NCBI GenBank assembly: GCA_934140155.1
Contig: CAKPBC010000008.1
Location: forward strand, 1 to 64,000
Direction: 5' to 3'
DNA: 64,000 nt
Source of the DNA: an uncultured Bacilli bacterium
Lineage (GTDB): Bacteria; Bacillota_I; Bacilli_A; RFN20; CAG-826
Positions 179 through 59,259 of this stretch are shown here, piece after piece; positions within the stretch are counted from its first letter, which is position 1, and each line of letters opens with the position of its first letter. Under the pieces are notes generated by a model. It was not told the DNA's origin and did not search any database. It saw nothing but the letters and a program-made list of their open reading frames with translations. The position numbers were made by a program, and so were the translations under genes.

Positions 179-191
179 TATTCTACTATTA

Positions 192-268
192 TGGGGCGGA
201 CAATCAGAATCGAACTGACGAATGTCTGGTTCACAGCCAGATGTGTTAACCACTTCACCATGTCCGCC
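192..268 (-). tRNA. tRNA-His (anticodon GTG), with extra 5-prime G(-1) pairing C73 and encoded CCA
   Basis: Reverse complement folds as cloverleaf: acceptor GCGGACA/TGTCCGC, anticodon stem TCTGG/CCAGA with loop CTGTGAA, T-loop GTTCGATTC, 3-prime CCCA. Confidence 0.85.
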
Positions 269-319
269 ATGCATAGATTATTCTACACGTAATATTAGCA
301 AAAGTAAAGCATTTTTTGC

Positions 320-1120: not shown

Positions 1121-1136
1121 TTTTTCTCCTACTTAA

Positions 1137-2078: not shown

Positions 2079-3426
2079 CTCCTATATCAAAATTTTCAAA
2101 TCCACTTTTCTTATCATCAAGTGGCTTATGAGTATTCTTAATAAATATAAATACAATTAATGCTAAAATCATAAATCCAGTTGCGTAAGCAAATAAGCTT
2201 TCATATCCTAAAGCATCCATTAAGAAACCAACACAAATTGGGGTAATAGATTGAGCTAGCATTGATGATGTGTAATATAAACCAGTATATTTACCAACAC
2301 TATTTTTATCAGACATTTCTACAACCATTGGGTAAGAAGAAATATTAATAAATGCCCAGCCAACACCTGAAATAACAAATAGTAAAATATAAACAATTAA
2401 ATTAGTTTTTAAACTTGTTTGTGAACAAATAAAACATCCGCCTAAGCTAATAATCATTAGTCCTAAACCTAAAATGATAGACCATTTTCTTCCAATTTTA
2501 GAAACTAACTTTCCTGCTGGAATAAATGTAATAAGTGACGCTACTGTAAGAGCTACTGTGGCAATAGATACCGAGCCCTTATTCATTACTTCAATACCAT
2601 ACGTTGACCAGAATGTTTCAACAGCGTTAAAAGCCATATACCATAAGAATATTGAAGCAATTAATAATACAAGATTAGTTTTATCTTGTTTTGTTAGTTT
2701 ATGGTCTATCTTACTAGCGGCTTCTGTTTCCGCTAATTGTTCACCTAACTCCATATCAGATTTCATTTCTTCTACTACTTTATTTTCTTTAATCTTAACA
2801 ATTAGAATTATTAAAGATACAAGCATCAAAACTGATGTAAAAGCAAATGGAATAATGAATAAGTAAGGATTAGGAATTTCTGTCTCAATAGTTGGCATTT
2901 TAAATAAGGAAATCATTTGAATTGCACCAGCAAATATTGCACCAATATAGCCAACAAAGTTAATAATTCCGTTCGCTGTTGCTCTAAGTGGTTTAGGTGT
3001 GACATCAGGCATCAAAGACACAGCAGGGTTTCTAAACATTTGCATAAATATAAGTACTAATCCCATTGTCACAATAACACCAACTAAAGAATTCTTAGCA
3101 AAGAAGAATGGAATAAATGGGAATAAAATCATCGAAGCAACTGTTCCAATAACAATAAAAGGCATTCTTCGACCATATTTTGAATGGGTCTTATCTGATA
3201 AGTTACCAAATAGTGGTAATAAGAATAAAGCAAGAACATTATCCATCGCCATAATTATTCCGATAAGATAGTTATAATCTTTATCGCCATAAGTGCTTTT
3301 AAGTAAACGTGCTAAAAACAAAGGGCAATAATAATTATACATTTGCCATAACATTAAAATTGTAAAGAATGTTAAGCCAATTATAAATGTTCTTTTATAA
3401 TTTAGTTTTAGTTTTTTCTCTTCCAT
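2071..3426 (-). CDS. MFS transporter
   Basis: 451 aa, about 12 predicted TM helices split by a charged central loop. Confidence 0.65.
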   Translation of the reverse strand: MEEKKLKLNYKRTFIIGLTFFTILMLWQMYNYYCPLFLARLLKSTYGDKDYNYLIGIIMAMDNVLALFLLPLFGNLSDKTHSKYGRRMPFIVIGTVASMILFPFIPFFFAKNSLVGVIVTMGLVLIFMQMFRNPAVSLMPDVTPKPLRATANGIINFVGYIGAIFAGAIQMISLFKMPTIETEIPNPYLFIIPFAFTSVLMLVSLIILIVKIKENKVVEEMKSDMELGEQLAETEAASKIDHKLTKQDKTNLVLLIASIFLWYMAFNAVETFWSTYGIEVMNKGSVSIATVALTVASLITFIPAGKLVSKIGRKWSIILGLGLMIISLGGCFICSQTSLKTNLIVYILLFVISGVGWAFINISSYPMVVEMSDKNSVGKYTGLYYTSSMLAQSITPICVGFLMDALGYESLFAYATGFMILALIVFIFIKNTHKPLDDKKSGFENFDIGDD

Positions 3427-3550
3427 ATAATTATACCTCTTAATGAGTTTATCACAAATGTTGTAACTTAACCATCATATAAATGTAAAAATGAAAAAAT
3501 TTATTTTACAAATTTATCTTTGTTAATAAAAATAAAGTACATAATTATTC

Positions 3551-6223: not shown

Positions 6224-6249
6224 ACCAATATTATATCATTTTCTCAAAA

Positions 6250-6282
6250 CAAAAAAAATCCCTGATTTTTCATCAGAGATTA
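6250..6282 (-). terminator. Rho-independent terminator after flotillin gene
   Basis: Minus-strand hairpin CUCUGAU-GAAAAA-AUCAGGG followed by U8. Confidence 0.7.
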
Positions 6283-6305
6283 ATTATTTCTAGAAATTAG
6301 TAATA

Positions 6306-7883
6306 TTATTTGCTCTCTTTTGGTGTATCTTCTTTTTTCTTTTCAATTAGTTTTCCACCTAGATACCCAGCAATTAAAGATTTAATATCTAATCCTGTGG
6401 CTTTTTGAAGTCCATCAATTATTTGATTACCATTTTTAGATAATTCCTCTGTTAATTTAGCTGTATTTCCTTCACCATACATCGTAATAGAATCAATTTT
6501 ACTCATTGCAGAAGCCATTGGTTCAGAGTATGCTTTAATAATTTCTGGAAGTACATTAGAATCAAGAATTAATTGTAATGTCGCAGCTTCTCCATATTGC
6601 TTCATTGCATCAGCTTTTGCTTTAATTGCATCAGCTTCAGCTTTACCTTTTGCTTCAATACCTTTAGCTTCCGCAAGTGCAGCTTCTCTCAAAGCATTTG
6701 CCTTAGCAATTTGAGCGGCTGCTTCGGCTTCAGCTTGAATCTTTAAAGCTTCAGCGGCTTTAGTGCGAGCAACTTTTTCAGCTTCTGCCTTAATTTTTTC
6801 CATTTCTGCTTCTTGTTCTAATTCGTATTTTTTCGCTTCGGCAGCTTTTTGACGAGCATATAAATCTGCTTCAGAAGCTTGCTCTTTAGCGTACTTTTCT
6901 GCATCAGCTTGCTTATTAATAGTAGCTTGAAGTTTTCTTTCTTGAAGTTCAACTTCCTTTTGTCCTAATTCTACTTCACGTTCACGCTTAGCAATATCAG
7001 CATTGATTTGTGCAATGTTAATCTCTTGTTTGCGTTTTTGTTCCTCAATAGCATAAGCAGCATCAGCGGTAGCTTTAGCGGTATCTGTTTGTTGTTTTAA
7101 CGCTGATTCTTTAAGTGATAAAGATGTATTTTGTTCTATAATCTTTTGATTAGCTTCAACTCTTGATCTATTAGCAGCTTCTTCTGCATTAGATTTGGCA
7201 ATAGTAACATCTCTTTCTGCATTTGCTTTGGCAATTGCAGCATCTTTTGAAATTTGAGAAATGTTATCAATACCTAAGTTTTCAATCACATGATTATCAT
7301 CAGAGAATGATTGAATATTAAAGTTTACTACTTCAATTCCCATTTTAGCCATATCTGGAACAACATTATCTTTAACTGATAAGGCAACACCTTGTCGGTC
7401 TTGTACAAGTTTTTTAATATCAACTGTACCAATAATTTCACGCATATTACCTTGTAATACTTGTTGAACTTGTTTGATTAAGTCTGATTCAGTCATATTA
7501 AGAATTGATTCAGCCGCACGATCAAGAAGTTCTGGATCAGAAGAAATCTTTAAATTAGCAACACCATCAACACGAATATTAATAAAATTAGATGTTGGAA
7601 TTGCTTCATCAGTTTTAATATCCACTTGAAATACTCTTAATGAAAGTTTATCAATTCTTTGTAAAAAAGGAATTCTAAAGCCAGCTTTACCAATAAGAAT
7701 CTTTCTTTTCCCTAGTCCTGACACAATAATAGCGGTATCCGGTGCCGCTTTAACATAACTACACGCAAATAAAATCAACAATACCACTAGTACAATAACA
7801 CCAATGGTTAGACCAATTGTAACTGCATCTGATAAAAACATAATATTTACCTCCGTTTTATCTTGTATATTTGTAATATACAA
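6306..7883 (-). CDS. floT: Flotillin-like SPFH/band-7 protein (FloT/YqiK-like)
   Basis: N-terminal TM, SPFH domain, long Ala/Glu/Lys-rich coiled-coil repeats (EAEKIKAEAEK...). Confidence 0.8.
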   Translation of the reverse strand: MYITNIQDKTEVNIMFLSDAVTIGLTIGVIVLVVLLILFACSYVKAAPDTAIIVSGLGKRKILIGKAGFRIPFLQRIDKLSLRVFQVDIKTDEAIPTSNFINIRVDGVANLKISSDPELLDRAAESILNMTESDLIKQVQQVLQGNMREIIGTVDIKKLVQDRQGVALSVKDNVVPDMAKMGIEVVNFNIQSFSDDNHVIENLGIDNISQISKDAAIAKANAERDVTIAKSNAEEAANRSRVEANQKIIEQNTSLSLKESALKQQTDTAKATADAAYAIEEQKRKQEINIAQINADIAKREREVELGQKEVELQERKLQATINKQADAEKYAKEQASEADLYARQKAAEAKKYELEQEAEMEKIKAEAEKVARTKAAEALKIQAEAEAAAQIAKANALREAALAEAKGIEAKGKAEADAIKAKADAMKQYGEAATLQLILDSNVLPEIIKAYSEPMASAMSKIDSITMYGEGNTAKLTEELSKNGNQIIDGLQKATGLDIKSLIAGYLGGKLIEKKKEDTPKESK

Positions 7884-7980
7884 ATCAATTTAATTACACT
7901 TAAAATATATCATTAAATTATTAATTTTAAAATAAATTTTTCATTCATTATTTATTTGAGTAAATACAGTTTTATAAAAG

Positions 7981-8011
7981 AAAAAAATCCCTGACTATTA
8001 CATCAGAGATT
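7981..8011 (-). terminator. Rho-independent terminator after dfx; near-identical copy of the 6250 terminator
   Basis: AATCTCTGATG-N8-AGGGATTTTTTT on minus strand. Confidence 0.65.
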
Positions 8012-8026
8012 TAAGATATAAATTAA

Positions 8027-8392
8027 TTATTTAATAGCCCAAAGGCCATGTAAATTGCAATAGCTAATTGCGTTAATAACTTCATCGCCATCAACAAGAG
8101 CAAACTCTACAACTGGTTCTTGACCTGGATGTAATTCACGACGTTGATTACCAAATTTGGTTTGTAAGATAATCCAACCAATATAATGATTATCAAGCAT
8201 TGGATGAATTACTTCACCAACACTAACACGTACAAGATTACCAATTCTTGTTACAACTGGAATATGCTTTTCTTTAGCGGCTTCTGTTGTATTAGGTTTA
8301 ATTTCGACAAATCCTTCAACATTAGTTAAATCGATTTCATCATTTGCAACCGCTAAAACTTTGCCACATTTTTTGCATTCAAAGAACTTCAT
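8027..8392 (-). CDS. dfx: Superoxide reductase / desulfoferrodoxin-family protein (start trimmed to internal Met MKFFECKKCG)
   Basis: N-terminal CKKC, EKHIPVV, C-terminal YCNLHGLW hallmark of the SOR iron centre; the listed ORF extends upstream into rbr. Confidence 0.75.
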   Translation of the reverse strand: MKFFECKKCGKVLAVANDEIDLTNVEGFVEIKPNTTEAAKEKHIPVVTRIGNLVRVSVGEVIHPMLDNHYIGWIILQTKFGNQRRELHPGQEPVVEFALVDGDEVINAISYCNLHGLWAIK

Positions 8393-8393
8393 A

Positions 8394-8927
8394 TTAATAA
8401 TTTTCTTTTCTAACTTCAAAATATGATTGAGGATGTCCACATACTGGGCAAACAAGAGGTGCTTTCTTTCCAATAACTAAGTGGCCACAGTTACGGCATT
8501 CCCACATTGTTTCTTCAGATTTTTCAAATACTGCTTTCATCTCAACATTATTTAAAAGTTTTAAATATCTTTCTTCATGAGCTTTTTCAATTTTACCAAC
8601 TGCTCTAAATTTCATTGCAATTGCTTTAAATCCTTCTTCTTCCGCAACTTTAGCGAACTCTTCATACATATCGGTCCACTCATAGTTTTCTCCACTAGCA
8701 GCAGCCTTTAAGTTTTCAGCAGTATTTCCAATTCCGCCTAATTCTTTAAACCACATTTTGGCGTGTTCTTTTTCGTTATTAGCGGTTTCTTCAAAAATAG
8801 CAGCGATTTGTTCATAACCTTCTTTTCTTGCAACACTAGCAAAGTAAGTATATTTATTTCTTGCTTGTGATTCTCCTGCAAATGCTGCTTGTAAATTTTT
8901 TTCTGTCTTTGATCCTTTTAGTTCCAT
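8394..8927 (-). CDS. rbr: Rubrerythrin (start trimmed to [13 protein letters not shown])
   Basis: Ferritin-like diiron domain plus C-terminal rubredoxin-like CxxC..CxxC ([15 protein letters not shown]). Confidence 0.8.
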
Positions 8928-8929
8928 AT

Positions 8930-9301
8930 TTAATTTCCTTTCTTTTGTTTGCAACTATCACAAATGTAGTGAATTGCTAAGTCATAATATAAGATATCAA
9001 CATCACTATGACTTTTAATATCATCTAAATAGTCAGGTAAGTCAATATCATCTACTAAGCCACACAAATCACATACTTTATGATGATGCGGAGTTAACGT
9101 ATGATCAAAGTGATCTGGTTGATCTACAATTTTAACTCTTAGAATTTTTCCTTCATCTACTAAAGAATTAAGATTATTGTAAATAGTGGCAAAAGTGATT
9201 CCTGGCATCATCTTTTGGGCAATATCATAAATTTCTTTTGCTGTCATATGAGCCATATTGTTTTGAACTATATCAAGAATTAATCGCCTTTGCTTCGTCA
9301 T
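8930..9301 (-). CDS. perR: Fur-family peroxide-responsive repressor (PerR-like)
   Basis: Fur-family [13 protein letters not shown] and CDSC metal sites; located upstream of rbr-dfx. Confidence 0.7.
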
Positions 9302-9314
9302 ATAATCTCCTTTT

Positions 9315-9329
9315 TTAGAATCATTCTAA
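9315..9329 (-). promoter_or_regulatory. Per/Fur box (7-1-7 inverted repeat TTAGAATCATTCTAA) between -10 and RBS of perR
   Basis: Perfect 7-1-7 palindrome resembling Per box TTATAATNATTATAA. Confidence 0.6.
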
Positions 9330-9341
9330 AATTCTATTTTT

Positions 9342-9369
9342 ATTATAACAAATTAAAAAATGTTTGCAA
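9342..9369 (-). promoter_or_regulatory. Sigma-A type promoter of perR operon (TTGCAA-16-TATAAT)
   Basis: Read on minus strand: TTGCAA..16 nt..TATAAT then Per box then AAGGAG RBS. Confidence 0.5.
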
Positions 9370-9378
9370 TACCCTTTT

Positions 9379-10170
9379 TTATTTTTCTTCTTTTATTGAT
9401 AAATATACATGACTTTTATAATTATTTTCATTAAGAACTTCTTTGTTCCAAAATTTCATTGCTTCTTCATAAAAATAATCAGCATTTTCATTAACACTCA
9501 ATCCCTCTTTTGGACGAATTACATGTGAAAAAGTAAGGTTCATTCTTGGCTTCATCCATTTAAATAAAGGTTTTCTAAAAGTTTCTGCACAAACAACAAT
9601 TGGTTTATTACTCATTGCAGCATATTTAAAAGATGTTTTTTCAAATTTTCTTAAACCAGTATAATAAGGCCATAATGTTCCTTCTGGATAAATAGAAATC
9701 ATAGCCCCTTTATTAACTAATTCTTTCATTGCTTTATTAAAGCCACGAATATTAGTCATGTTATTAGGTAAAGGTAAACATCCTAACATCATGACTAAAG
9801 TTCCTATAATAGGAATATTTATAGGATCAGCATGTGATAAAACATATGTTCGACGTGGAAAGCCTGCAAATATATGCGATAAAAAAGCATCATAATAATG
9901 ACAGTGATTAGAATAAAAGAATACTCCTTCTTTTTTATTTAATTCTTTGCGTAAATACTTTTTATTTTTGACTTTAACGCCTAAAACAATTTTACTAACT
10001 ACCCACAATATTGGAAAAGCGATAATATAATAAACAATAAAACTAAAAAAACGATAAAATATATTATGGTGAATATATTTAAAATTATCTTTTAATGGCT
10101 TTGAATTATGAGCAATAGTTCCAAAGTCATCTTGCATATCTTCATGATAATAATATGTTTTCTTTTTCAT
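9379..10170 (-). CDS. Lysophospholipid/1-acylglycerol-3-phosphate acyltransferase (PlsC family)
   Basis: NHxxxxD motif (NHCHYYD) and PEGT motif (YPEGT), N-terminal TM. Confidence 0.65.
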   Translation of the reverse strand: MKKKTYYYHEDMQDDFGTIAHNSKPLKDNFKYIHHNIFYRFFSFIVYYIIAFPILWVVSKIVLGVKVKNKKYLRKELNKKEGVFFYSNHCHYYDAFLSHIFAGFPRRTYVLSHADPINIPIIGTLVMMLGCLPLPNNMTNIRGFNKAMKELVNKGAMISIYPEGTLWPYYTGLRKFEKTSFKYAAMSNKPIVVCAETFRKPLFKWMKPRMNLTFSHVIRPKEGLSVNENADYFYEEAMKFWNKEVLNENNYKSHVYLSIKEEK

Positions 10171-11348
10171 TACGCTATTAATCCTTTATCTTTTAGTTCA
10201 CTAAATATAATGTCGGCAATTTGCATAGAACCGTTTTTTTCACGGTTAACATTTTTCTTAATATTTTGTTTAAGTGCTTTTAAATATTCTGGATGTTCAT
10301 ATAAATATGTAATTGTGCGATACATATGAGAAACATTATAGCAAGTCACGCCACAATTTAAATCTTCGCAAAATAATTTTGCTGACGCTTTTTCAATGTT
10401 ATGTGCATAATAATCTACGACAACTGGAGTTCCCATATATAACGAATCAAGCACCGCATTAGGTCCAGATTTAGTAATAAACACATCACTAGCGCCATAA
10501 TATTCATAAGCAAGTGGAGTAAAACGTAAAGGCACTAAAGTTATATTATCAGGCACTTTGCTTTTCTTTTTATCAAAATATTGATATACCTTTTCGTTTT
10601 TACCAGCAAGTATTAAAATAGTAATCGGAAATTTAATGTTTTTAATCAAATTATTACAAGCTCGTTTTGCTTTACCTTGCGCATAAGCACCATCGGCAAT
10701 AATGACCGTAAATTTATCAAGTGGTAAATTATATTTTTTACGATACTCTTCTTTTGTTCCCGTAGCATTAACTACTTCATTACGAGCAGTGAAAAACACA
10801 CGACGTAACTGTTCATATTTAAATCTTCTCTTTTTAATTGATTCATTACAAGCTGAATCATTATTGTTAATAAATATGTCACTACGATTATCCCACCATA
10901 CGTGGACATTATTATCTGGGTTATAAGTAATAACAGTTAAATTGGGCATATAACGTTTCTTTAATTCTAGAGCCGCAAATGTAATGAAATAATGTGTAGA
11001 AATAATAACATCTGGATTATGAGCGCGCATTGCATCAATTGTAGCATCAGTATATTTTTTAAAAATTGTACGGTGTGTAAAACGCATAAATGTTTGTTTG
11101 CCCATTAAATCCAAAAACCAGAATATGCCAATACCAAATGCTTTATCCTTATTAGTTTTTTTTGTACAACCGGACAAGAACTTTTCAAAATCCGCGGTAG
11201 CCTTATTACCTTCATCCATAATATATGATTCAATAATATCTAATTTATCACTATATTTTGCTTTTAAACTATCCGCAATGGCCTTCATTGACATAATATG
11301 TCCCATTCCAGATTCTATATATGTTAATAATACACGAGGTTTGTCCAT
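10170..11348 (-). CDS. ugtP: Diacylglycerol glycosyltransferase (MGDG synthase/UgtP family, GT28)
   Basis: N-terminal MGDG_synth signature LLTYIESGMGH; GT-B C-terminal domain. Confidence 0.65.
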   Translation of the reverse strand: MDKPRVLLTYIESGMGHIMSMKAIADSLKAKYSDKLDIIESYIMDEGNKATADFEKFLSGCTKKTNKDKAFGIGIFWFLDLMGKQTFMRFTHRTIFKKYTDATIDAMRAHNPDVIISTHYFITFAALELKKRYMPNLTVITYNPDNNVHVWWDNRSDIFINNNDSACNESIKKRRFKYEQLRRVFFTARNEVVNATGTKEEYRKKYNLPLDKFTVIIADGAYAQGKAKRACNNLIKNIKFPITILILAGKNEKVYQYFDKKKSKVPDNITLVPLRFTPLAYEYYGASDVFITKSGPNAVLDSLYMGTPVVVDYYAHNIEKASAKLFCEDLNCGVTCYNVSHMYRTITYLYEHPEYLKALKQNIKKNVNREKNGSMQIADIIFSELKDKGLIA

Positions 11349-20905: not shown

Positions 20906-20940
20906 ATTGACTTTTATACATTAAAAATACTATTATATTA

Positions 20941-21163
20941 GTGCGTTGAAAAAGACACGTTAATAAATTAACTTTATTAAGCGAAGAAATGATTGGTGCA
21001 AGATTTCTATAAAGTATTTATTAATACCACTTTGGAGCATTTTGCGAAATAAGCAAACGTCACTGGCGTTAACAGTACTTGAGAGTATGTTTAATTTATT
21101 ATTAAATATAAATTAAGGTGGTACCGCGTTAATAGCGTCCTTATTAAAGGGGCGCTTTTTTTA
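20941..21163 (+). ncRNA. T-box riboswitch leader of thrS
   Basis: T-box sequence AAATTAAGGTGGTACCGCG at 21108-21127 followed by terminator GCGTCC..GGGCGC and T-run. Confidence 0.75.
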
Positions 21164-23159: not shown

Positions 23160-23278
23160 GAACAAAATACGTGGAAAGAAGAGGCGCCCGCTTCTCACCT
23201 GATTCACAAAGTGAATAGGTAAATGTCACATATCGTTAAGATATTTTCACGGGCGCATCCTGCGTCCGTTTTTTAGTT
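23160..23278 (+). ncRNA. L20-responsive leader/attenuator of the infC operon
   Basis: Alternative pairing GAGGCGCCCG vs CGGGCGC, terminator GGGCGC-ATCCT-GCGTCC followed by T6, located between promoter and infC RBS. Confidence 0.55.
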
Positions 23279-23294
23279 CAAAGGAGGAATTATT

Positions 23295-48550: not shown

Positions 48551-49831
48551 TTACCTCCTTTTTATCGCCTTTATAACAAAGGAAGTGGGATACTTTTCCT
48601 CATGATATCTAAGTTCATCAAATAAACTTATATTAAATTTTGTTAATAAACTTGAAAAAATATCTTTCAACATATATTCTCTATATAAACATTTAGGATA
48701 CTTTTCACTTCTTTCAAAATTATAAGGCATATATCCGTAAAATGGCGAAGAATAAAAATAATCATCATTAATTTGAACAGCCAAAGATTTATTATCTACT
48801 AATTTTAAAAAAGGGTGAAAATCATGCAAAATATATACACCATTGTCTTTTAATAGCGATGCCACATTTTCCATGAAAATATTGATATCTAAAAAATAAT
48901 GTAAAACACCAACTGTAGAAATTACCATATCAAACTTATTTCCACAAGTTTCAATTTTTTTAGACAAATCAACATTTATATATTCTAATTTTTGTTGCAA
49001 ACAATCGGCACATTCACTTGCATATTTTTTTCCAGAAGTAGAATAATCGAAAACAGTAACGTGAGCACCATTTAAAACCAAAGAATTGGCTAATCTGCCA
49101 CAGGAATCACATACACAAGCAATTTTTTTTCCTTTTATATCTCCAATATATGGATAATATTTTTGAAAAATATTGTCTTTACCATTATATAAATTTCTTG
49201 CCATTACATCAGGTGTTCCATATCTTTTTAACCAATAATCATAAGTTTTAAAATCCCATGCTATTCTATTATTTGATGAAAATTCTTTTTCTCCCAAAAT
49301 TGATACAATTTCGTATAAAGGATCTCTACTGCATCCAACAATATTAAGCTCTTTTTCAATGATGTGTTTTAATTTTTGAATTTCCTTTACTTGATATAAA
49401 GCAATATCTTCTATGGAAAAATCATAAACACTTTTTAATCCATTTGTATCAAGCATTCGTTCATATATTTTACGCGGATTTGTTTTCAAATAAAAATATA
49501 CATCACCAATTTTATGATAAGAATCAGGTCTAAAATCAAGAAGAGTTTTATCTTTTAATAAATAACCAGCATGATAATCTAAAAAAACATATCTATATTT
49601 AGAATTATATTTTAAAATTTGTTGAAGAGATAATTCATATAGTTTATTTTGCTGATTCAATGTTAATGAACCATTATCTGCTTTTCCAAATAATTTAATA
49701 GATAATTCATCTTGTATTTTATTCCTTTTTATATGCACAGCATCGTTACCATAATAATTTAAAAGACGTTTTATTAAAGTTGTTTTTCCACTTCTTTGAA
49801 CTCCATATATAAGAACTATCATTTTATTCAT
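48551..49831 (-). CDS. P-loop kinase-like domain fused to class I SAM-dependent methyltransferase
   Basis: GVQRSGKTTL Walker A; C-terminal MTase motifs (ACVCDSCGRLA, DMVISTVGVLHYF). Confidence 0.5.
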   Translation of the reverse strand: MNKMIVLIYGVQRSGKTTLIKRLLNYYGNDAVHIKRNKIQDELSIKLFGKADNGSLTLNQQNKLYELSLQQILKYNSKYRYVFLDYHAGYLLKDKTLLDFRPDSYHKIGDVYFYLKTNPRKIYERMLDTNGLKSVYDFSIEDIALYQVKEIQKLKHIIEKELNIVGCSRDPLYEIVSILGEKEFSSNNRIAWDFKTYDYWLKRYGTPDVMARNLYNGKDNIFQKYYPYIGDIKGKKIACVCDSCGRLANSLVLNGAHVTVFDYSTSGKKYASECADCLQQKLEYINVDLSKKIETCGNKFDMVISTVGVLHYFLDINIFMENVASLLKDNGVYILHDFHPFLKLVDNKSLAVQINDDYFYSSPFYGYMPYNFERSEKYPKCLYREYMLKDIFSSLLTKFNISLFDELRYHEEKYPTSFVIKAIKRR

Positions 49832-51233
49832 CTCCTGATATATTAGTTATTATTTTTTGAATATCTTCATTGCTAAATCCAAGATTTATCAGATAAGTAT
49901 TAACATCATGATATGTATATCTAAAACATTCTAAAAAGCAAGAAAACTTTTTTTTGGCATCGTGGTACTTTGTATTATGTTCATATTCTCCTCTTTGATT
50001 TTGATATATTTCATCGGTCAATAAATATTCGCAAATGATTTCTTCATCTGAAGAGCCTAATAACATTTCACATAGCATAGCAACGATTCCTGTTCTATCC
50101 TTACCAATCATACAATTAATTAAAATTTTATTACTAGATTCTTTTATATAGTTAAATATATTACGAAACGCCTCTTTTTGAGCCAATAAATACAAATAAT
50201 ATTCATTTAAATTTTTTACAAATTGAATATTATCTTCTTTCTTTTTTTTATTTGCATGAAAAATCGTTATATTTATCCAGTTAAAATTATCAATTAAAAA
50301 GAATGGCTTTTCTTTATCTTTAAAATTTCTTAAATCAATAATAGTAGTTACATTCATGTTTTTTAGAGTATCAATGTCTTCACTATTAAAAGGAATATAA
50401 TCACTTCTAATTAAGTTTGTATTAAAAGTGTTTGCTTTTACAAATCTAGTATTATTTGTAGATTTTAGCAATGATTCAAAACATACAACTCTACCATTTG
50501 TATTAAAATAATTTTCAAATGTATAATAATTCTTACTAAAAAAGAATCGTAAAACTTTTATATTTTGGTTTGGGTTGTCTAAATATAAAATTGCAGCTCT
50601 ATGTGTGCCATCTCTTATAATATTGTCATTATTATAGACAATTATATATTGATTATTCTCGCCATATTTTAATTTTTTAAATGAATCAAGAATTTCATTG
50701 AATCTTTCCTTATGACTTTGATTATGCAAGTTAGTCAATGTTTTTATTTCAAGATTTTCTTTGTTAGTTAAAAAGCATAAATGTTCACTTTCAGATACGT
50801 GCTTTATAGATTTATCTATAGAGAAAATAAGTAAATCTTTTAAAGAAATTACTTCTTCTTTTACATAGAGTAAATATGGTAAATCTATAGCAAGCATATA
50901 TCCCATATATACACCATCTAAAGCATTATAATCCAATCCTGAAACTGGATAATTATTCCTTAAATCACACTTGGTTATTACAAAAAGACTATTAAATTCA
51001 GTTAAATTTAGCAAATAATCTCTATTTTTTAAAATTATCCTAATTTTGTCATTTGAAACATATGCATTTAAGAAAGAATAACTAGCAGAAGAAATAAAAA
51101 AAGCTTTTTTTGTTTTTTTTAAGAACCAGTAAATTTCTTTTTCTAAGCGATACAAAAAAGAAACAAATATTAAATATTCAATTTCATTCATTACTATATC
51201 ATCTTGTTTTATTCGTACTTTAAATTTTTTCAT
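49824..51233 (-). CDS. Two-domain protein with C-terminal Y_phosphatase3-type tyrosine phosphatase domain
   Basis: CMIGKDRTG (CX5R) and TTIIDLRN motif; N-terminal 300 aa unassigned. Confidence 0.5.
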   Translation of the reverse strand: MKKFKVRIKQDDIVMNEIEYLIFVSFLYRLEKEIYWFLKKTKKAFFISSASYSFLNAYVSNDKIRIILKNRDYLLNLTEFNSLFVITKCDLRNNYPVSGLDYNALDGVYMGYMLAIDLPYLLYVKEEVISLKDLLIFSIDKSIKHVSESEHLCFLTNKENLEIKTLTNLHNQSHKERFNEILDSFKKLKYGENNQYIIVYNNDNIIRDGTHRAAILYLDNPNQNIKVLRFFFSKNYYTFENYFNTNGRVVCFESLLKSTNNTRFVKANTFNTNLIRSDYIPFNSEDIDTLKNMNVTTIIDLRNFKDKEKPFFLIDNFNWINITIFHANKKKKEDNIQFVKNLNEYYLYLLAQKEAFRNIFNYIKESSNKILINCMIGKDRTGIVAMLCEMLLGSSDEEIICEYLLTDEIYQNQRGEYEHNTKYHDAKKKFSCFLECFRYTYHDVNTYLINLGFSNEDIQKIITNISGDE

Positions 51234-52191
51234 AAGGATTTTTAGTTGCCTTCCCTATTTTGCTAAAATCTATGTACTTCGCCATATCTAAATTAGATTC
51301 ATAAGGATTCAATATTGCAATTCCGCTAGCAGAAGAAAATGTTAATTCGCCAAAATATATTTTTTCGCCAACGGCATACAAATCCACTCTAACAAAATCA
51401 AAATACAAAGAAAGTTCAGATGTGATTTTTTGCATTTTATCTAACACATTAACATCTAACTTCATATCAATCATTTTATACTCAGGACACTGGAAATATG
51501 TCATTTCATAATTTTTATTAAAAATCGTACGTTTATGATTATTAAATCTATTAGTGTCAACGGAAAAATACTTCATATCACCATTAAAACAAAAAAATTT
51601 ATAATCTGGCAAATCATTTGAATTGGCTAAATATTGTGTAATAAAAATACATGGTTTTATATTTTTGTATTGCATTTCGTATCCATGGCAATAAGCATAA
51701 TTAATCTGCAATTCTTTATTTAGTTTCTTTTGAAGCTTAAAAAAACCTTTTTTCCCTAATTTGTCTTTACTACGAACAATATGAGTCATATGTGCTCCAT
51801 GATTGCATTGAATGACAAAACTATTAGGTAATTCTTCAAAATTAATTTCCATAGCATTATAAAAATATTCTTTTCCATTATTTTTAATAATTGGTATCAA
51901 AAAATCTTCACCTATTGTGTTTTTTATGAAACTTCTAACTAAATATTTATCTGTGCAATATGTTTTTATATAATTGTCATTTTGAAGTTTTAAAACTTGC
52001 TGCTTTTCTGTAAATGTTTTAGGATTATCTAAGTCTAACTTTAATCCTGTTTTTTTATAGTACCAACATTTTAAGTACTCTTCTTTTTTATTTGTTCTTT
52101 CAAACTTTAATTCACGTCTTATTTCTTTTTTCCAAATTTCAATATAAAAAATATTTTCTTTAAGCCATTTAATTAATTTCATTGTTATCAA
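51220..52191 (-). CDS. ATP-grasp amidoligase, TupA-like family
   Basis: DLPDYKFFCFNG and RVDLY..GELTFS signatures. Confidence 0.5.
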   Translation of the reverse strand: MITMKLIKWLKENIFYIEIWKKEIRRELKFERTNKKEEYLKCWYYKKTGLKLDLDNPKTFTEKQQVLKLQNDNYIKTYCTDKYLVRSFIKNTIGEDFLIPIIKNNGKEYFYNAMEINFEELPNSFVIQCNHGAHMTHIVRSKDKLGKKGFFKLQKKLNKELQINYAYCHGYEMQYKNIKPCIFITQYLANSNDLPDYKFFCFNGDMKYFSVDTNRFNNHKRTIFNKNYEMTYFQCPEYKMIDMKLDVNVLDKMQKITSELSLYFDFVRVDLYAVGEKIYFGELTFSSASGIAILNPYESNLDMAKYIDFSKIGKATKNPYEKI

Positions 52192-53587
52192 TTCCTAAAA
52201 TCGCATCCGCAAGTTTATTCTGTTCTAATTTATACGATACTTTATGTAAAATACTTTTTAATGCAGAAGAACATTTGCAATAATATACAGGCTCACGCAA
52301 CTTTATAATTTCATAAAAAAAGTCATCAATTGTATTTAGGTACTTAACTCCAATGTTGTTGCCAACAATGGTATGTATAACTGTTAGTTTATTATTTATT
52401 AAAGTTGGAAGTCCAGCACTTATGCCTTCAAATATCCCACGGCCAAAAGTTTCCCAATTTGATGTTGAAATATTAATATCACATAATTCTAATAAAGAGG
52501 CTAACTCTTCTTGTAATATAGATATATGGAATATAATGTATTTATCTAAATTATTAATTAATATATAATGTAGCATTTCATCATATATCTCTTTTTCTTG
52601 AATAGTGGTCACTAAATGTAATTTTACTCTTATTCCATTTTTTATTAATTTGTTCAATAATTCAAGTTGCATTATATTGTTTTTTTGTTTTTTTATAGAA
52701 CCTATACAAATTAGATTTATTTCATCTCCACATGATTTTCTGATTCTAAAATGTATATGCGTGTCAATTCCTCTATATATAACATTGATTTTATCTTCAG
52801 ATATTAGATATTCACTTATTAAATCTTGTTTTTCTTCTATTGATGGAGTAATAATTTTATTCACAGATTGTAATACATTACATTCCTGCTTTGAATATTC
52901 TATGGGTACAAATTCTCCAGCACGTTGATATGAATGAGTACAAAACATTGGAAATAATATGGTTTTTTTCCAAAACGATTCTCCAAAATCGCATCCAAAG
53001 AATTTACTTACATGCGCAGTTACAACTTTATCATATTTTTCAAAATCTTTTAAAGCTTCAATGTTTGTATCTAGATTTTTTAGTCGCCTTATAAATTTAT
53101 TATTAAGAGCATCCTTATACCTATAATAAAAAACATTTTTAATATAGTTATTAACATATATTTCATTGTTTTTTCTTATAAAAGCAACATCCAATTTACA
53201 TCTTTTTTTTAATGTGTCTATTAGTTGTTTGGCTAAAATGCTACCACCATCTATATCCTTTCCATATCCGGGAAATTTTCCCAAATAAAGTAAAACTTTC
53301 ATATCCGATCTTAAGAAATCATTATATGCTTTATTCAATGCACAAACAAATGGATGATGGCCTCCAATAAATTCTATGCACTCATTAATGTATTTAATCT
53401 CGTCACATAAAATATATTGTAAATTATAATCCGTATTTTGTATTTTATGTCCAATATACACTGAAAAGTCTTCTTTTTTCACTTTCCCATTAATAGAAAA
53501 ATCTTTCAACTTAGTAAATCTATTAACTAACTTTTCATCTTGAAAAAATTTTTTATAGCAATAATTATCTAAAATCAATTTTTTCAT
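52169..53587 (-). CDS. Glycosyltransferase family 4-like (C-terminal GT-B domain) with N-terminal extension
   Basis: ETFGRGIFEGISAGLPTL (E-x7-E). Confidence 0.55.
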   Translation of the reverse strand: MKKLILDNYCYKKFFQDEKLVNRFTKLKDFSINGKVKKEDFSVYIGHKIQNTDYNLQYILCDEIKYINECIEFIGGHHPFVCALNKAYNDFLRSDMKVLLYLGKFPGYGKDIDGGSILAKQLIDTLKKRCKLDVAFIRKNNEIYVNNYIKNVFYYRYKDALNNKFIRRLKNLDTNIEALKDFEKYDKVVTAHVSKFFGCDFGESFWKKTILFPMFCTHSYQRAGEFVPIEYSKQECNVLQSVNKIITPSIEEKQDLISEYLISEDKINVIYRGIDTHIHFRIRKSCGDEINLICIGSIKKQKNNIMQLELLNKLIKNGIRVKLHLVTTIQEKEIYDEMLHYILINNLDKYIIFHISILQEELASLLELCDINISTSNWETFGRGIFEGISAGLPTLINNKLTVIHTIVGNNIGVKYLNTIDDFFYEIIKLREPVYYCKCSSALKSILHKVSYKLEQNKLADAILGIDNNEIN

Positions 53588-53812: not shown

Positions 53813-54349
53813 TTACGTTAAATTCATTATTTTTTGCACTTGATTGGTTTTTAGATAAATTTGTCTATCAAAATCAAAATTATTCTTTTCAATTGGAATA
53901 CCTAGAACACTTTCTAACAATTTGTATTTAGTATCTATGGTATAAGAAAATAATTTTAAATACTCAGAAAACATGTCGATCATTAGTATATTAGAATTTT
54001 TCAAACTCGACAATAAGCACCTTTGATTTGAAAATAAAACTGTTTTTTTCGCGTGACATGCTAAATAAGTAAACAAATAAAAATTCTCATCTACAATTGC
54101 ATAGTGCTCATGTAAATCAATATTTTTTAATTTTGAAATTACTTTTTGGTTCATTTTTTCTCGAATGTTTTTTGGAAAGCCAGACACAAAAACCACTTTT
54201 TTTAAACTATTGTACATTTTTTTGGCAACATATGTTTTCCCAATACATGGTTTTCCAACTACAATGATGCTATTCGAATTAGACTTCATTATCGTTTGTA
54301 AAATTCCGGTTTCATATTCATTTATTTTCTTTAACAAATTTATATCCAT
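53813..54349 (-). CDS. Small P-loop NTPase
   Basis: VVGKPCIGKT Walker A. Confidence 0.4.
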   Translation of the reverse strand: MDINLLKKINEYETGILQTIMKSNSNSIIVVGKPCIGKTYVAKKMYNSLKKVVFVSGFPKNIREKMNQKVISKLKNIDLHEHYAIVDENFYLFTYLACHAKKTVLFSNQRCLLSSLKNSNILMIDMFSEYLKLFSYTIDTKYKLLESVLGIPIEKNNFDFDRQIYLKTNQVQKIMNLT

Positions 54350-55487
54350 ATTTTCGTGAATTAATAATTTGAATTCTAATCCATTTGTTTATTTGCATAA
54401 GTTGATTATTTTCAACAATTTCATCTAGACGTTTTATTAAATACGGGAAGAATCCCTTTACAAATCTACACAACTGAGTATCAGAATTCAAAAGAGAGCC
54501 ATTTTCATTATATGCATGACAATTGGCACCACCATTGCAGTATAGATAAAGATTGCATTTTGATTTACAATTTTTTCTTCTAATTATTGATTTTTTAACT
54601 ATTTCTTCATATTTTTGCGTTTCATAAATATCACTTATTTTATTAACTTCATTTATGTTAGTAATTTTAAAATCTTCATCTGAAAACCTTGTACAATTAA
54701 AAATATTACCATTTGGATCAATACTAACCCACTTATAAAGGCAACCAACTAATTCACATATTCGCCCTTTAGAAGATCCTAAAATTGTTAAAACATACTT
54801 TGCAAGTGGTGTGAAAACAGGACCATTTTTATCGTAAAGCCAATGTTCAAAAAGTTTTTTAAATCCATCTAAATATTCTTCATCATTCATTAAGTAAGGA
54901 ATGGCAGTATTTGAGTTCTTCATTTTAAATATTGGATTTAATTGAAATGGTATATTCTTACTTTTAAAATCTTCATATATATCAATTAAATGTCCAATAT
55001 TCTTATTAGTTACAACACAAATTACCGGAACAATGTATCCGAGTTGCTTGGCTTCTTTCATCCTACTTTCAACAATTGATGTTTGTTCTCTTAATACATT
55101 ATTATAAAATCCATCATATGAAAAAGAAAAAATAAATTTATTTTCGAGAAGAAATTTTAAAATCTCCCCTGTACATAAAACACCATTTGTCTGCAAATAA
55201 TTGCGTATTATAGTTCCTTGGGCATATTTTTTTTCGAATTCTAAAACTTTTTTGTAAAAATCAATTCCAAGCAAAAGAGGTTCTCCACCAAACCAATTAA
55301 AATCAACTTTTTTATAATTAGTTACATAAAAGCGAATTATTTTCTCAACTGTCTCTATACTCATTTTAGATTCACAATAGTTTTGTCCGGCCTCATAGCA
55401 ATGTTTGCATCTCATATTGCAAGACAAAGTCACCTGAATAATTACAGAAGCATATGACCCGTCAAGAAAATTAGCATTCGTTGACAT
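54318..55487 (-). CDS. Radical SAM/SPASM-domain peptide-modifying enzyme
   Basis: CNMRCKHC (CX3CX2C), GGEPLL, C-terminal SPASM cysteines (CELVGC..NCTRF..CKSKCNLYLYCNGGANCHAY); start overlaps precursor stop (TAATG). Confidence 0.7.
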   Translation of the reverse strand: MSTNANFLDGSYASVIIQVTLSCNMRCKHCYEAGQNYCESKMSIETVEKIIRFYVTNYKKVDFNWFGGEPLLLGIDFYKKVLEFEKKYAQGTIIRNYLQTNGVLCTGEILKFLLENKFIFSFSYDGFYNNVLREQTSIVESRMKEAKQLGYIVPVICVVTNKNIGHLIDIYEDFKSKNIPFQLNPIFKMKNSNTAIPYLMNDEEYLDGFKKLFEHWLYDKNGPVFTPLAKYVLTILGSSKGRICELVGCLYKWVSIDPNGNIFNCTRFSDEDFKITNINEVNKISDIYETQKYEEIVKKSIIRRKNCKSKCNLYLYCNGGANCHAYNENGSLLNSDTQLCRFVKGFFPYLIKRLDEIVENNQLMQINKWIRIQIINSRKYGYKFVKENK

Positions 55488-55681
55488 TAAAAACTATCGC
55501 CCCATGATGGAGTGTCAGCCCAACCATGATCTCCCCAAGAATCGCTCCATTCACGCCAACGATTTCCTGAATCATCTTCATTTTGCAATTCATCATAAAA
55601 ATTGCTAGAATCTTCATATAATGAATTCCATTCTGCCAATAAAGCATTGCTGGTTTTTTCATTATTTATAAAATCATTCAT
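55487..55681 (-). CDS. RiPP precursor peptide candidate: acidic leader plus C-terminal core with five W-x-(D/E) triplets
   Basis: Core GNRWREWSDSWGDHGWADTPSWGDSF; strong RBS AGGAGG; translationally coupled to rSAM/SPASM gene. Confidence 0.6.
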   Translation of the reverse strand: MNDFINNEKTSNALLAEWNSLYEDSSNFYDELQNEDDSGNRWREWSDSWGDHGWADTPSWGDSF

Positions 55682-55701
55682 AATTAAATCCTCCTAAAAA
55701 A

Positions 55702-55731
55702 ATTATACCCCCCCCCGTAGCATTTTGTCAA
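55702..55731 (-). promoter_or_regulatory. Promoter TTGACA-18-TATAAT with G9 homopolymer in spacer (candidate phase-variable)
   Basis: Minus strand reads TTGACAaaatgctacGGGGGGGGGTATAAT then tttttAGGAGG and ATG. Confidence 0.55.
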
Positions 55732-55857: not shown

Positions 55858-56034
55858 ATGAACTCTACAAAAGATGAAAAAATAGAAATTGGTCGTCAAA
55901 TTTGCACTCATGAAATTACTATAGGTGATGCCGCTGAGAAATATAGCCTTAATTGGTATACAGTAAGAGACTATATGCGTCAATATAGAGATTTAAATCA
56001 TCTTCCACCAATGTCTGATGGTAAAGTGAAGTGA
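55858..56034 (+). CDS. Small HTH protein (58 aa) resembling IS3-family OrfA N-terminal HTH; unlisted in ORF track
   Basis: RBS GAAAGGAG; EKIEIGRQICTHEITIGDAAEKYSLNWYTVRDYMRQYR pattern. Confidence 0.45.
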   Translation: MNSTKDEKIEIGRQICTHEITIGDAAEKYSLNWYTVRDYMRQYRDLNHLPPMSDGKVK

Positions 56035-56101: not shown

Positions 56102-56308
56102 TTAAAACTTTGGTAACAAAGCCGCTAATAAATCACCTTCACCGATTCTTGTTCCATATTCATCATAAGTATAAGTCCCATCAAATCTACCAATTCTACG
56201 ACCATATCGATCATAAATATATTTGTTATTTCCTTGCTCATCGGTTCTGCCTATTATAGTTCCATAACGATCTTTTAAATATTTAGTATTCATATAATAT
56301 TCCTCCAA
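56102..56308 (-). CDS. Small repeat protein with three YD-like DRYGxxIGRxD repeats
   Basis: KDRYGTIIGRTD / YDRYGRRIGRFD / YDEYGTRIGEGD. Confidence 0.45.
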   Translation of the reverse strand: MEEYYMNTKYLKDRYGTIIGRTDEQGNNKYIYDRYGRRIGRFDGTYTYDEYGTRIGEGDLLAALLPKF

Positions 56309-57788: not shown

Positions 57789-59009
57789 TTATTTCATTTC
57801 TACTTTTTTGAAGTTCTTCTTGCCTTTACGTAAGACAAAACCATTTTTAACTTGATCAACGCTAATTAATAATTTAACATCATTAACTTTATCATTATCA
57901 ATAACAACTCCGCCTTGTTCTACTGCACGTCTTGCATCAGATTTTGAAGTAGCTAATTCCACTTTCATAAGTAATGATAAGATATCAATATGTCCCTCAG
58001 TAAAGTCTTCTTCACTTAATACTACGCTTGGCATATTTGCGGCACTACCAGCGCTAAATAAAGATTCTGCAGTTGCTTTAGCGGCGTCTGCTTTTTCTTT
58101 ACCATGAACCATACTTGTTAATTCATAAGCAAGAACTTTTTTCGCTTCATTAAGTTCTGCTCCTTCCATCTTTTCAAATTTTGCAATTTCTTCAAGTGGA
58201 ATAAATGTTAACATCTTCATACATTTAACTACATCAGCGTCATCAATATTACGCCAATATTGATAGAATTCAAATGGTGTAGTTTTATTTTCATCTAACC
58301 ATACCGCACCAGATTGTGTTTTACCCATTTTCTTACCTTCGCTATTAAGTAATAAGTTAATAGTTAAAGCGGAAGCATCTTTACCTAATTTCTTACGAAT
58401 TAATTCAGTACCGGCAAGCATATTAGACCATTGATCATCGCCACCAAATTGTAAGTTACAACCATATTTTAAGAATAATTGATAGAAGTCATAACTTTGC
58501 ATAATCATATAGTTAAATTCTAAGAAACTTAATCCTTTTTCCATACGTGATTTATAGCATTCAGCACGTAACATATTATTAACAGAAAAGCAAGCACCAA
58601 CGTCACGAAGTAATTCAATATAATTTAAATTACGTAACCAATCAGCGTTATTAACCATTAAAGCTTTACCTTCAGAAAAATCAATAAATCTTTCCATTTG
58701 TTTTTTGAAACATTCACAGTTATGGTTAATATCTTCCACTGTTAACATCTTACGCATATCACTTCTACCACTTGGATCACCAATCATACCAGTGCCACCG
58801 CCAATTAACGCAATTGGACGATTACCCGCTAATTGGAGACGTTTCATTAAGACTAAAGTCATAAAGTGACCAACATGTAAGCTATCTGCAGTTGGATCAA
58901 AACCAATATAGAATGTTGCCTTTCCATTATTAATTAATTCTTTGATTAATTTTTCATCTGTTACTTGGGCAATTAATCCTCTTGCCACTAATTCTTCATA
59001 AAGTTCCAT
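57789..59009 (-). CDS. tyrS: Tyrosine--tRNA ligase (start at MELYEELVARGL, RBS AAGGAG)
   Basis: HIGH region FDPTADSLHVGH, KMSKS region KMGKT, C-terminal S4-like domain. Confidence 0.9.
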   Translation of the reverse strand: MELYEELVARGLIAQVTDEKLIKELINNGKATFYIGFDPTADSLHVGHFMTLVLMKRLQLAGNRPIALIGGGTGMIGDPSGRSDMRKMLTVEDINHNCECFKKQMERFIDFSEGKALMVNNADWLRNLNYIELLRDVGACFSVNNMLRAECYKSRMEKGLSFLEFNYMIMQSYDFYQLFLKYGCNLQFGGDDQWSNMLAGTELIRKKLGKDASALTINLLLNSEGKKMGKTQSGAVWLDENKTTPFEFYQYWRNIDDADVVKCMKMLTFIPLEEIAKFEKMEGAELNEAKKVLAYELTSMVHGKEKADAAKATAESLFSAGSAANMPSVVLSEEDFTEGHIDILSLLMKVELATSKSDARRAVEQGGVVIDNDKVNDVKLLISVDQVKNGFVLRKGKKNFKKVEMK

Positions 59010-59250
59010 TTGTTTTCTCCTTTTAAAAAAATAAAAATTCGCCCCTATTAAAGGACGAATTAATCGTGTTACCACCTTTATTCGTAGATAATTCGCATTA
59101 TCTACCTTAGTGAGTCTTAGACTCAATACTTAACGCGCATTAACGAGTGTTATTAGCACTAACTCCAAGGTGTATTCATAATTAATAACTATTTCTTTGC
59201 ACCATCCAGAAACTCTCTACTAATTTATTAATTACTACTATCCTTATCTT
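59010..59250 (-). ncRNA. T-box riboswitch leader of tyrS
   Basis: Minus strand AAAGGTGGTAACACG T-box-like sequence and terminator TTCGTCC..GGGCGAA followed by T-run immediately upstream of RBS. Confidence 0.6.
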
Positions 59251-59259
59251 CGCTTTTTA

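Follow-up and report, generated by a model that had tools for sequence, protein, structure and literature searches.

A three-gene operon encoding a precursor peptide, a radical S-adenosylmethionine (rSAM) maturase with a SPASM domain and a small P-loop NTPase lies on the minus strand of contig CAKPBC010000008.1 from an uncultured Bacilli bacterium (GenBank assembly GCA_934140155.1), of which we analysed positions 1 to 64,000, hereafter the window. The operon most likely belongs to a so far undescribed family of peptides that ribosomes make and enzymes modify, resembling the RiPPs (peptides synthesised by ribosomes and modified after translation), and it is very probable that its first two genes form a precursor and maturase pair acting on triplets in which an aromatic residue is followed at the second position by Asp or Glu (W-x-D/E and, in relatives, Y-x-D/E). 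For the modification itself we favour, by analogy with known systems and at a rough probability of one half, a carbon–carbon linked three-residue cyclophane joining the aromatic residue to the Asp or Glu, which would be triceptide-like with an acidic acceptor.

The initial annotation, made from the letters of the window, described a 64-residue open reading frame (ORF) with five Trp in its last 26 residues, each with Asp or Glu at +2 (WRE, WSD, WGD, WAD and WGD) and with successive Trp residues spaced by 3, 4, 5 and 6, and this is indeed what the ORF contains. Its TAA stop codon overlaps the ATG of the gene for the 389-residue rSAM enzyme as TAATG, so that the two genes share a single base, again as had been noted. 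The peptide has no Cys and carries a net charge of about -12 before processing; W-x-W, W-x-F and W-x-Y do not occur in its core. When all six frames of the 64 kb were scanned, at least four W/Y-x-D/E triplets per 30 residues were found in the precursor core only. The WSD, WGD, WAD and WGD triplets are invariant in the three closest homologues. The fifth triplet, WRE, is WRG in the homologous locus L225 and is missing in L001, and the two nearest homologues have a Trp spacing of 4-5-6, L002 one of 4-4-5; because the progression is not kept across the family, we take it to be incidental. Two features to which the initial annotation had drawn attention, the growing spacing and the fifth triplet, are thus not conserved.

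The initial annotation had made its proposal depend on the small ORF being conserved and located beside the enzyme gene, and when this was checked the ORF proved to be conserved and to lie beside the rSAM gene in every readable locus. When the peptide was used as a database query, one homologue, P0076, was returned; its gene lies immediately upstream of one for a homologous rSAM, with start and stop codons overlapping in the same way. Over 41 codons aligned between the window and L001, 22 are identical, 15 differ synonymously and 4 non-synonymously, which indicates that the translated sequence is under purifying selection; judged by this codon pattern and by its promoter and ribosome-binding site, the 64-residue ORF is a real gene, conserved and precursor-like. 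A motif-bearing small acidic ORF also adjoins the rSAM homologue in L001, L002, L004, L164, L165/166, L167 (partial), L168/169, L170-172, L173, L174, L175 and L225, and in the more distant relatives L005-7 from Treponema. Among all rSAM homologues whose loci could be fetched, every untruncated locus carries between one and four small acidic ORFs beside the enzyme. Altogether, about 20 distinct small ORFs and one phage protein of 1,550-1,579 residues stand beside related enzymes, and they have in common a leader motif and an acidic W/Y-x-D/E core. The related loci come from Selenomonadaceae, Treponema and metagenome bins, and include phage sequences and what appear to be samples from animal gut or rumen. 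Their cores are divergent, ending in EEWADSWSDRWGDHGWGDCGRGDSGTSW (L002), YRWRGWSDCWGDHGWADTPLWGDTF (L225), CYSDLWTEWHDGGDDRGWSETNPNF and SYGDISCYTESYTDGSETQRYTDTD (the two peptides of L165), NWSDSWDESHWSDEPKSGCWGDW (L168), GWDDDWDDDCCCCIGGYSK (L004, L173 and the database peptides P0090-P0097) and AWAAWFEGEESWGSDSDDD (Treponema loci L005-7); the two peptides of L175 have the cores GYSDHYDEHYDSVYDD, which is internal, and RDYTEYTETKYSDDYDD.

The one feature common to these otherwise divergent cores is the aromatic-x-Asp/Glu triplet itself. Trp and Tyr interchange, Asp and Glu interchange, the middle residue (X2) is free, and core length and spacing vary. In 16 precursors, Asp or Glu occupies +2 for 55 of the 67 core Trp and Tyr residues, against 17.7 ± 3.3 expected (z = 11.3), and none of 5,000 shuffles reached the observed value; when one peptide was taken per subfamily (10 peptides), the count was 37 of 46 against 12.8 ± 2.8, a value reached in 0 of 10,000 shuffles. 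The registers +1, +3, -1, -2 and -3 are at or below the shuffle expectation in the 16 precursors. Upstream of the core, a leader motif of the form hydrophobic-x-x-[E/N]-[W/Y]-x-x-[L/M] aligns across 15 precursors.

The 389-residue enzyme carries the rSAM cysteine motif C23-x3-C27-x2-C30 (CX3CX2C) and eight auxiliary-cluster cysteines at or near the ligand positions of anSMEcpe, a solved anaerobic sulfatase-maturating enzyme (anSME): C244, C249, C265 and C323, and C307, C311, C317 and C340. It had been annotated as having a full SPASM domain, and although the match of the Pfam SPASM model to the 389-residue protein falls short of E 0.01, the enzyme aligns end to end with anSMEcpe, both sets of auxiliary-cluster cysteines included, so that by alignment the full domain appears to be present. 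It has no N-terminal RiPP recognition element (RRE) domain, the rSAM motif starting at residue 23. In a scan against NCBIfam, 57 families matched and 25 are listed; none reaches its curated cut-off. In bits against the cut-off, the values are 167/349 for anSME (TIGR03942), 152/450 for DynA, 120/300 for TIGR04083, 90/340 for PapB, 74/650 for DarW and 60/650 for DarE, with 65 bits for QhpD; PqqE is not among the 25 of the 57 that are listed. When a profile of the enzyme's clade was compared with solved structures, it matched anSMEcpe (4K36; E 2.5e-53), CteB (3e-29) and the triceptide synthase ChlB (1.6e-16), and an AlphaFold (AF2) model built on a 15-sequence alignment (mean predicted local distance difference test score 86.8) gave the same order in Foldseek: anSMEcpe first (E 2e-22, template modelling (TM) score 0.78-0.84), then CteB, then ChlB (E 1e-15, TM 0.73-0.78). 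The enzyme is therefore closer to anSME than to the one solved triceptide synthase in this comparison. Goldman and co-workers are said to have identified, in 2013, Y24 and D277 of anSMEcpe as lying near the anSME target. The aligned residues of the window enzyme are E32 (for Y24), kept throughout the clade, and T266 (for D277), a position at which the clade has Thr, Pro or Ser; E32 and H29, both clade-specific and at substrate-proximal positions, differ from anSME and from the wider family alike.

The extent of the family depends on how it is searched for. A word-indexed search yielded 15 close rSAM homologues, and an exhaustive HMMER search of 1.84 billion representatives yielded 1,762 relatives at E ≤ 1e-30, of which the top 150 all outscore anSMEcpe against the same clade profile and 10 that were sampled all fall below every curated cut-off. 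The idea that the family is rare overall, with some 15 homologues, was dropped in view of this continuum; "rare" fits only the core clade to which the window enzyme belongs, 18 representatives that share the signature Q18, H29, E32, F66, S121 and P348, where relatives outside it mostly have K18, Y29, H66 and G121. The family offers a way into a large unnamed block of anSME- and DynA-like enzymes.

One subfamily of precursors suggests how the work may be divided between enzymes. These peptides end in G-W-D-D-D-W-D-D-D-C-C-C-C-[VIL]-G-G-[YF]-S-K and never occur without a second rSAM/SPASM protein, extended at its N terminus and 412-420 residues long, which is nearest to maturases of Cys-rich peptides (TIGR04463, CefB) and scores below their cut-offs and below all NCBIfam cut-offs; the Cys-rich peptides of the related loci match no family. 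The Cys-free window peptide is accompanied by one rSAM only. Since the second rSAM is found wherever the core has Cys runs, the W-x-D part is left to the window-type enzyme, and the CCCC peptides are likely to be doubly modified, by thioether formation and by the W-x-D modification. As a separate observation, three loci (L168, L170 and L174) have a further precursor and rSAM pair beside the W-x-D/E system, in which peptides of 61-66 residues end in Cys/Asp-rich repeats (CDDFCDCDDCEDCDCIECDDGNVDCDCIW) and the rSAM, of 562-579 residues, has no curated family.

Outside the core clade, the rSAMs of Treponema (L005-7) and of phage (L085 and L176-178) also adjoin acidic aromatic sequences, and from these two branches it follows that the association of rSAM and acidic aromatic segment may extend further. 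The phage contigs, from IMG/VR, encode a holin, an amidase, an rSAM relative with 37% identity and then, overlapping it, the protein of 1,550-1,579 residues. The first 50 or so residues of this large protein are precursor-like (NFNEYNCWDEWDEVDYGDTWDEYDNYTEWDEDD), with the leader motif NFNEY followed by WDE/YGD/WDE/WDE, and the protein matches PF12831 (FAD-dependent oxidoreductase) in its C-terminal part. It is possible that in the phage case the modification would be made on the large protein itself.

Gene order, conservation, co-location, the motif and the class and fold of the enzyme are established by the comparison; the site of modification and the type of bond we infer, and the chemistry that we favour would run as follows. 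The maturase, having no RRE, probably binds the leader directly through the hydrophobic-x-x-E/N-W/Y-x-x-L/M motif. The 5'-deoxyadenosyl radical would take a hydrogen from the methylene of the acidic residue at +2 (C-beta of Asp or C-gamma of Glu), the resulting carbon radical would add to the aromatic ring (indole or phenol) lying two residues upstream, and oxidation through the auxiliary clusters with loss of a proton would leave a three-residue cyclophane, at -2 Da per triplet. In the window peptide this would give four conserved rings and possibly a fifth, and a rigid peptide of strongly anionic character would result. Several considerations favour a cyclophane. The strict i/i+2 register is the ring geometry of triceptides, darobactin and dynobactin; Trp and Tyr, and Asp and Glu, interchange while X2 is free; and the division of labour with the second rSAM in relatives with Cys runs points the same way. 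Moreover, rSAM enzymes are known to attack the methylene of acidic residues: PapB, QhpD and PqqE do so at Asp C-beta or Glu C-gamma. Finally, DarE is, by full-length similarity, most similar to anSME outside its own group (PMC10288494), so that the resemblance of the window enzyme to anSME is itself typical of cyclophane formers.

Of the systems already described, the window operon would appear to work most like the triceptide and daropeptide types of cyclophane formation. With the triceptides and the enzymes that form their three-residue cyclophanes (3-CyFEs; XyeB, GrrM/OscB, YhhB, FxsB, ChlB, HtkB, HaaB and MicB) it shares repeated aromatic-X-X core triplets, a single RRE-less rSAM/SPASM maturase beside the precursor in a minimal cluster (here in more than 12 loci) and a fold that matches ChlB. 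It differs in its own clade signature, in having a P-loop NTPase as a conserved partner and, above all, in the third residue of the triplet (X3). Asn is one of the X3 residues of triceptides. Others that have been described are Lys, Arg, Ser and Ala (PMC11499958, PMC12912966), where the window has Asp or Glu. Because the enzyme remains below the curated models, even though the motif and the adjacency are those of triceptides, we describe the system as triceptide-like with an acidic position 3 and do not file it as a triceptide. The initial annotation had proposed it as a candidate for the cyclophane class of rSAM RiPPs; a conserved precursor-like ORF beside the rSAM and a shared triplet speak for this, and scores below every curated cyclophane-synthase cut-off speak against a firm assignment. 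Streptide, which had been named as a three-residue example, is not a three-residue ring.

The structure of anSMEcpe (PDB 4K36-4K39) is the closest solved one and anSME the closest curated family, yet the Y24/D277 pair is changed and the putative substrate is a small repeat peptide, not a sulfatase. DynA, the second-best curated match, and DarE make Trp-based three-residue rings with anSME-like rSAM/SPASM enzymes, and the C-terminal W-G-D-S-F of the window peptide recalls the W-N-W-S-K-S-F of darobactin. In contrast to the daropeptides, however, the window enzyme is far below the cut-offs of DynA, DarE and DarW, the acidic core has multiple repeats, the host, an AT-rich member of the Bacillota, is not a gammaproteobacterium, and no DarBCD-type transporter genes were seen among the window neighbours scanned. 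The aromatic-X-aromatic motif that defines the ether ring (PMC12912966) has no counterpart in the window core, where W-x-W is lacking. PapB, QhpD and PqqE are rSAM/SPASM proteins that abstract hydrogen from an acidic methylene, as is proposed for the window enzyme, with weak hidden Markov model matches for the first two. The partner is a Cys sulfur for PapB (ranthipeptides) and QhpD (the gamma subunit of quinohemoprotein amine dehydrogenase, QHNDH), and the Cys-free window peptide can have no Cys-x(n)-Asp/Glu pair. PqqE makes a carbon–carbon bond between Glu and the Tyr ring in PqqA, needs PqqD and acts once, at an E-x3-Y site, whereas in the window peptide the acid comes two positions after the aromatic residue, the motif repeats and no PqqD or RRE gene or domain was seen among the operon neighbours.

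The third gene of the operon, for the NTPase, was not mentioned in the initial annotation. It overlaps the 3' end of the rSAM gene by 32 nucleotides, and NTPase homologues lie directly 3' of the rSAM in L164, L002, L084 and L225 as in the window, so that by position it is a conserved third gene; any role for it in the system is putative. The NTPase of L002 carries, as a fusion, a domain resembling the uracil-DNA glycosylase (UDG) superfamily, which is absent from the 178-residue NTPase of the window, and separate proteins with the same domain are encoded in L175 and L167. These accessory proteins have UDG-like motifs (hhhh-E/N-S/A-P and a C-terminal HPS), and the likeness is weak, PF03167 matching at E 0.018 and falling short of its cut-off. 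Proteins of the DUF1643 family are encoded in L170/L172. Many of the related loci stand amid mobile or conflict-type genes (GIY-YIG, WYL, AAA_15/AAA_21, TatD, kinase-vWA-PP2C sets and IS21). None of the loci read showed a gene for a protease or an exporter beside the operon, which would be explained if the peptide acts inside the cell or leaves it in some other way.

The promoter of the precursor gene matches the sigma-70 consensus at 12 of 12 positions (TTGACA-18 nt-TATAAT, 55731..55702), and its spacer holds a run of nine G. This is the only G/C run of at least six in the window (64 kb, 28% GC), in which 0.004 runs of at least nine would be expected. The same locus in an assembly from another sample (L003), otherwise identical over 4,671 nucleotides, has ten G, a difference to be read with the caution that homopolymer lengths can differ between assemblies through assembly error. 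A tract is found at the same position just upstream of the -10 hexamer in L001 (G8) and L225 (G9), both of which differ in flanking sequence, and is absent from more distant loci. Phase variation classically makes use of homopolymer tracts in promoter spacers, as in porA and opc of Neisseria and vlp of Mycoplasma. The unique spacer G9, with G10 in a second assembly, makes the promoter a candidate for phase variation and suggests that expression of the precursor may be switched on and off through changes in the length of the tract.

Several observations weigh against a cyclophane. The rule has its breakers: WDN in P0097, WRG in L225, and one clean triplet only in the Treponema peptides. Against the models of known cyclophane synthases the enzyme scores poorly (AmcB 81/425, GrrM/OscB 77/310, YhhB 68/445, FxsB 41/370), XyeB is not among the 25 of 57 NCBIfam matches listed, and the sequence match to ChlB is weak (E 2.4e-5). 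The invariant R267, adjacent to the auxiliary-cluster cysteines, was considered as a specific binder of the substrate carboxylate and rejected, since C-x-R/K is common in the top 145 representatives of the wider family. In the literature searched, no triceptide is reported in which Asp or Glu serves as X3 acceptor, and with a carboxylate there the radical might be diverted to a different outcome. The combined lack of a protease and an exporter is unusual for a secreted RiPP, and the cyclophane reading is an analogy. It is somewhat unlikely that the triplet is the target and the bond a different one: a carbon–nitrogen link (from Asp C-beta to Trp N1 or some other nitrogen), an ether as in darobactin, or an epimerisation, dehydrogenation or decarboxylation of the acid alone, in which case the aromatic residue would serve recognition only. 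Dynobactin has a His-Tyr carbon–nitrogen link, and DynA, the second-best curated match at 152 bits, makes both C–C and C–N links (PMC10288494); the outcome of DarE is set by the substrate residue at position 3 (PMC10705402; PMC11851443), and an acceptor for which no precedent was found and the clade-specific E32 and H29 near the substrate fit such a departure as well. Yet a strict i/i+2 aromatic-acid register fits a three-residue ring, a lone modification of Asp would not obviously need it, and ethers have been observed to form on aromatic residues at position 3 (PMC9055067; PMC12912966), which are absent here. That the enzyme is a divergent sulfatase-type maturase making formylglycine from Ser (or Cys), for instance in WSDSW or WGDSF, is very improbable, even though its best curated and structural matches are to anSME and the in vitro conversion of Ser to formylglycine and aminomalonate by a 3-CyFE has been reported (Ma et al. 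2021, via PMC12186529). The anSME score is less than half of the cut-off of 349; both anSME catalytic residues are replaced, which argues against formylglycine chemistry; none of nine neighbouring window ORFs has a sulfatase Pfam match; the sulfatase motif C/S-x-P/A-x-R is absent from the window peptide; and Ser is not conserved, the WDDDWDDD, YTEYTE and WDEWDE repeats being free of it.

A different question is where the product acts. It is rather unlikely, but deserves consideration, that the system is an intracellular or protein-borne part of a conflict or mobile-element system, in which an acidic aromatic segment made rigid by the rSAM would mimic nucleic acid, bind metal or serve in the manner of a cofactor, with the NTPase and the UDG-fold proteins as partners. 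What points this way is the lack of any protease or exporter in the loci read, the pairing of the phage rSAM with a precursor-like N-terminus, the conflict-type neighbours (DUF1643 included), the recurrence of UDG-like proteins with one fused to the NTPase, and the phase-variable look of the promoter. The cofactor pyrroloquinoline quinone and the QHNDH gamma subunit are precedents in which rSAM crosslinks at Glu or Asp build cofactors or protein crosslinks. Against it, the UDG match is weak, the window operon's own neighbours are cell-envelope and not defence genes, and membership of a known defence system was rejected, the PADLOC models giving nothing beyond generic viperin/rSAM similarity. 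RiPP clusters, moreover, commonly sit in variable regions too, and minimal clusters of precursor and rSAM without a transporter are known among the triceptides. A joint reading would combine these strands: a new crosslink from Trp or Tyr carbon to the Asp or Glu methylene, made on peptides and on the N-terminus of the phage protein of about 1,550 residues, with intracellular products that act with the NTPase and UDG-fold proteins in conflict between phage and host or mobile elements under a phase-variable promoter, and no conventional secreted antibiotic. Taken whole, we regard this combination as improbable.

If the cyclophane chemistry is true, Asp and Glu would be a new, acidic acceptor for rSAM cyclophane synthases, and a compact enzyme would be stapling W-x-D/E triplets into rigid polyanionic macrocycles, a chemotype absent from the descriptions that we found. 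The motif set had been called unlike any recognised family, and it is absent from the curated families and the literature searched: the W-x-D/E family is not described in Pfam, NCBIfam or that literature, which yielded nothing relevant on cyclophane rSAMs with WxD, Trp-Asp or otherwise acidic precursors, while published similarity networks, which were not covered, may hold it uncharacterised. Questions are raised about the role of the NTPase and about why there is no exporter or protease, and both the phage large-protein version and the apparently phase-variable promoter may bear on the role of the product in gut and rumen bacteria.

Table 1. Positions of the features discussed, in the window and in related loci (aa, amino acids; nt, nucleotides).
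Feature	Locus	Position	Strand	Basis or remark
-35 hexamer TTGACA of precursor promoter	window	55726..55731	minus	consensus match
G9 homopolymer (C9 on plus strand) in promoter spacer	window	55708..55716	minus	candidate slipped-strand phase-variation tract
-10 hexamer TATAAT	window	55702..55707	minus	consensus match
Ribosome-binding site AGGAGG, 8 nt before ATG	window	55690..55695	minus	read directly
Candidate precursor ORF, 64 aa, MNDFINNEKTSNALLAEWNSLYEDSSNFYDELQNEDDSGNRWREWSDSWGDHGWADTPSWGDSF	window	55487..55681	minus	ORF list
Precursor leader, residues 1-38, with motif LLAEWNSLY	window	55568..55681	minus	leader alignment of 15 precursors
Precursor core GNRWREWSDSWGDHGWADTPSWGDSF and stop codon	window	55487..55567	minus	leader/core boundary is an estimate
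Radical-SAM/SPASM enzyme, 389 aa, putative peptide maturase	window	54318..55487	minus	Pfam Radical_SAM
P-loop NTPase, 178 aa, Walker A GKPCIGKT	window	53813..54349	minus	weak AAA/NTPase matches
Three overlapping genes (GT4 glycosyltransferase, TupA-like ATP-grasp, Y_phosphatase3-domain protein)	window	49824..53587	minus	downstream of operon
58-aa ORF, candidate helix-turn-helix fragment	window	55858..56034	plus	opposite strand, just upstream of operon promoter
68-aa ORF, repeated DRYG-x-x-IGR units	window	56102..56308	minus	just upstream of operon; weak YD-repeat and 5-fold beta-flower matches
Two T-box leaders and one L20 leader	window	59048..59259 (-), 20937..21145 (+), 23170..23281 (+)
Tract regions compared	window; L003; L001; L225	55702..55731; 250..285; 5955..5985; 79..104
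CCCC precursor subfamily	L004; L164; L173	776..3325; 1263..3786; 2685..5166		also database peptides P0090-P0097
Second precursor and rSAM pair	L168; L170; L174	2947..4814; 7569..9444; 1409..3300
Accessory UDG-like proteins	L002; L175; L167; L170	7790..8368; 2454..3140; 1288..1851; 10459..11028
tRNA-Glu gene	L001	5624..5700
Phage rSAM and large protein regions	L085; L176; L177	5977..11854; 9..5865; 1778..7568		IMG/VR contigs

Downstream of the operon, the genes for the GT4 glycosyltransferase, the TupA-like ATP-grasp protein and the Y_phosphatase3-domain protein were considered as part of it and rejected, as they are separated by a gap of 225 nucleotides and do not recur in other loci; they are probably genes for a cell-envelope polymer. 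Upstream, the ORF of DRYG repeats may encode a separate small repeat protein, for which no link to the rSAM was seen. The ORF with the helix-turn-helix likeness, together with a tRNA-Glu gene about 300 nucleotides from the homologous operon in L001, hints at acquisition by a mobile element. Elsewhere in the window, the two T-box leaders and the L20 leader, taken with the AT-rich composition, indicate that the host is a low-GC member of the Bacillota. One of the T-box leaders lies upstream of the gene for tyrosyl-tRNA synthetase (57789..59126), whose listed TTG start enters the T-box, so that the true start is probably an internal Met.

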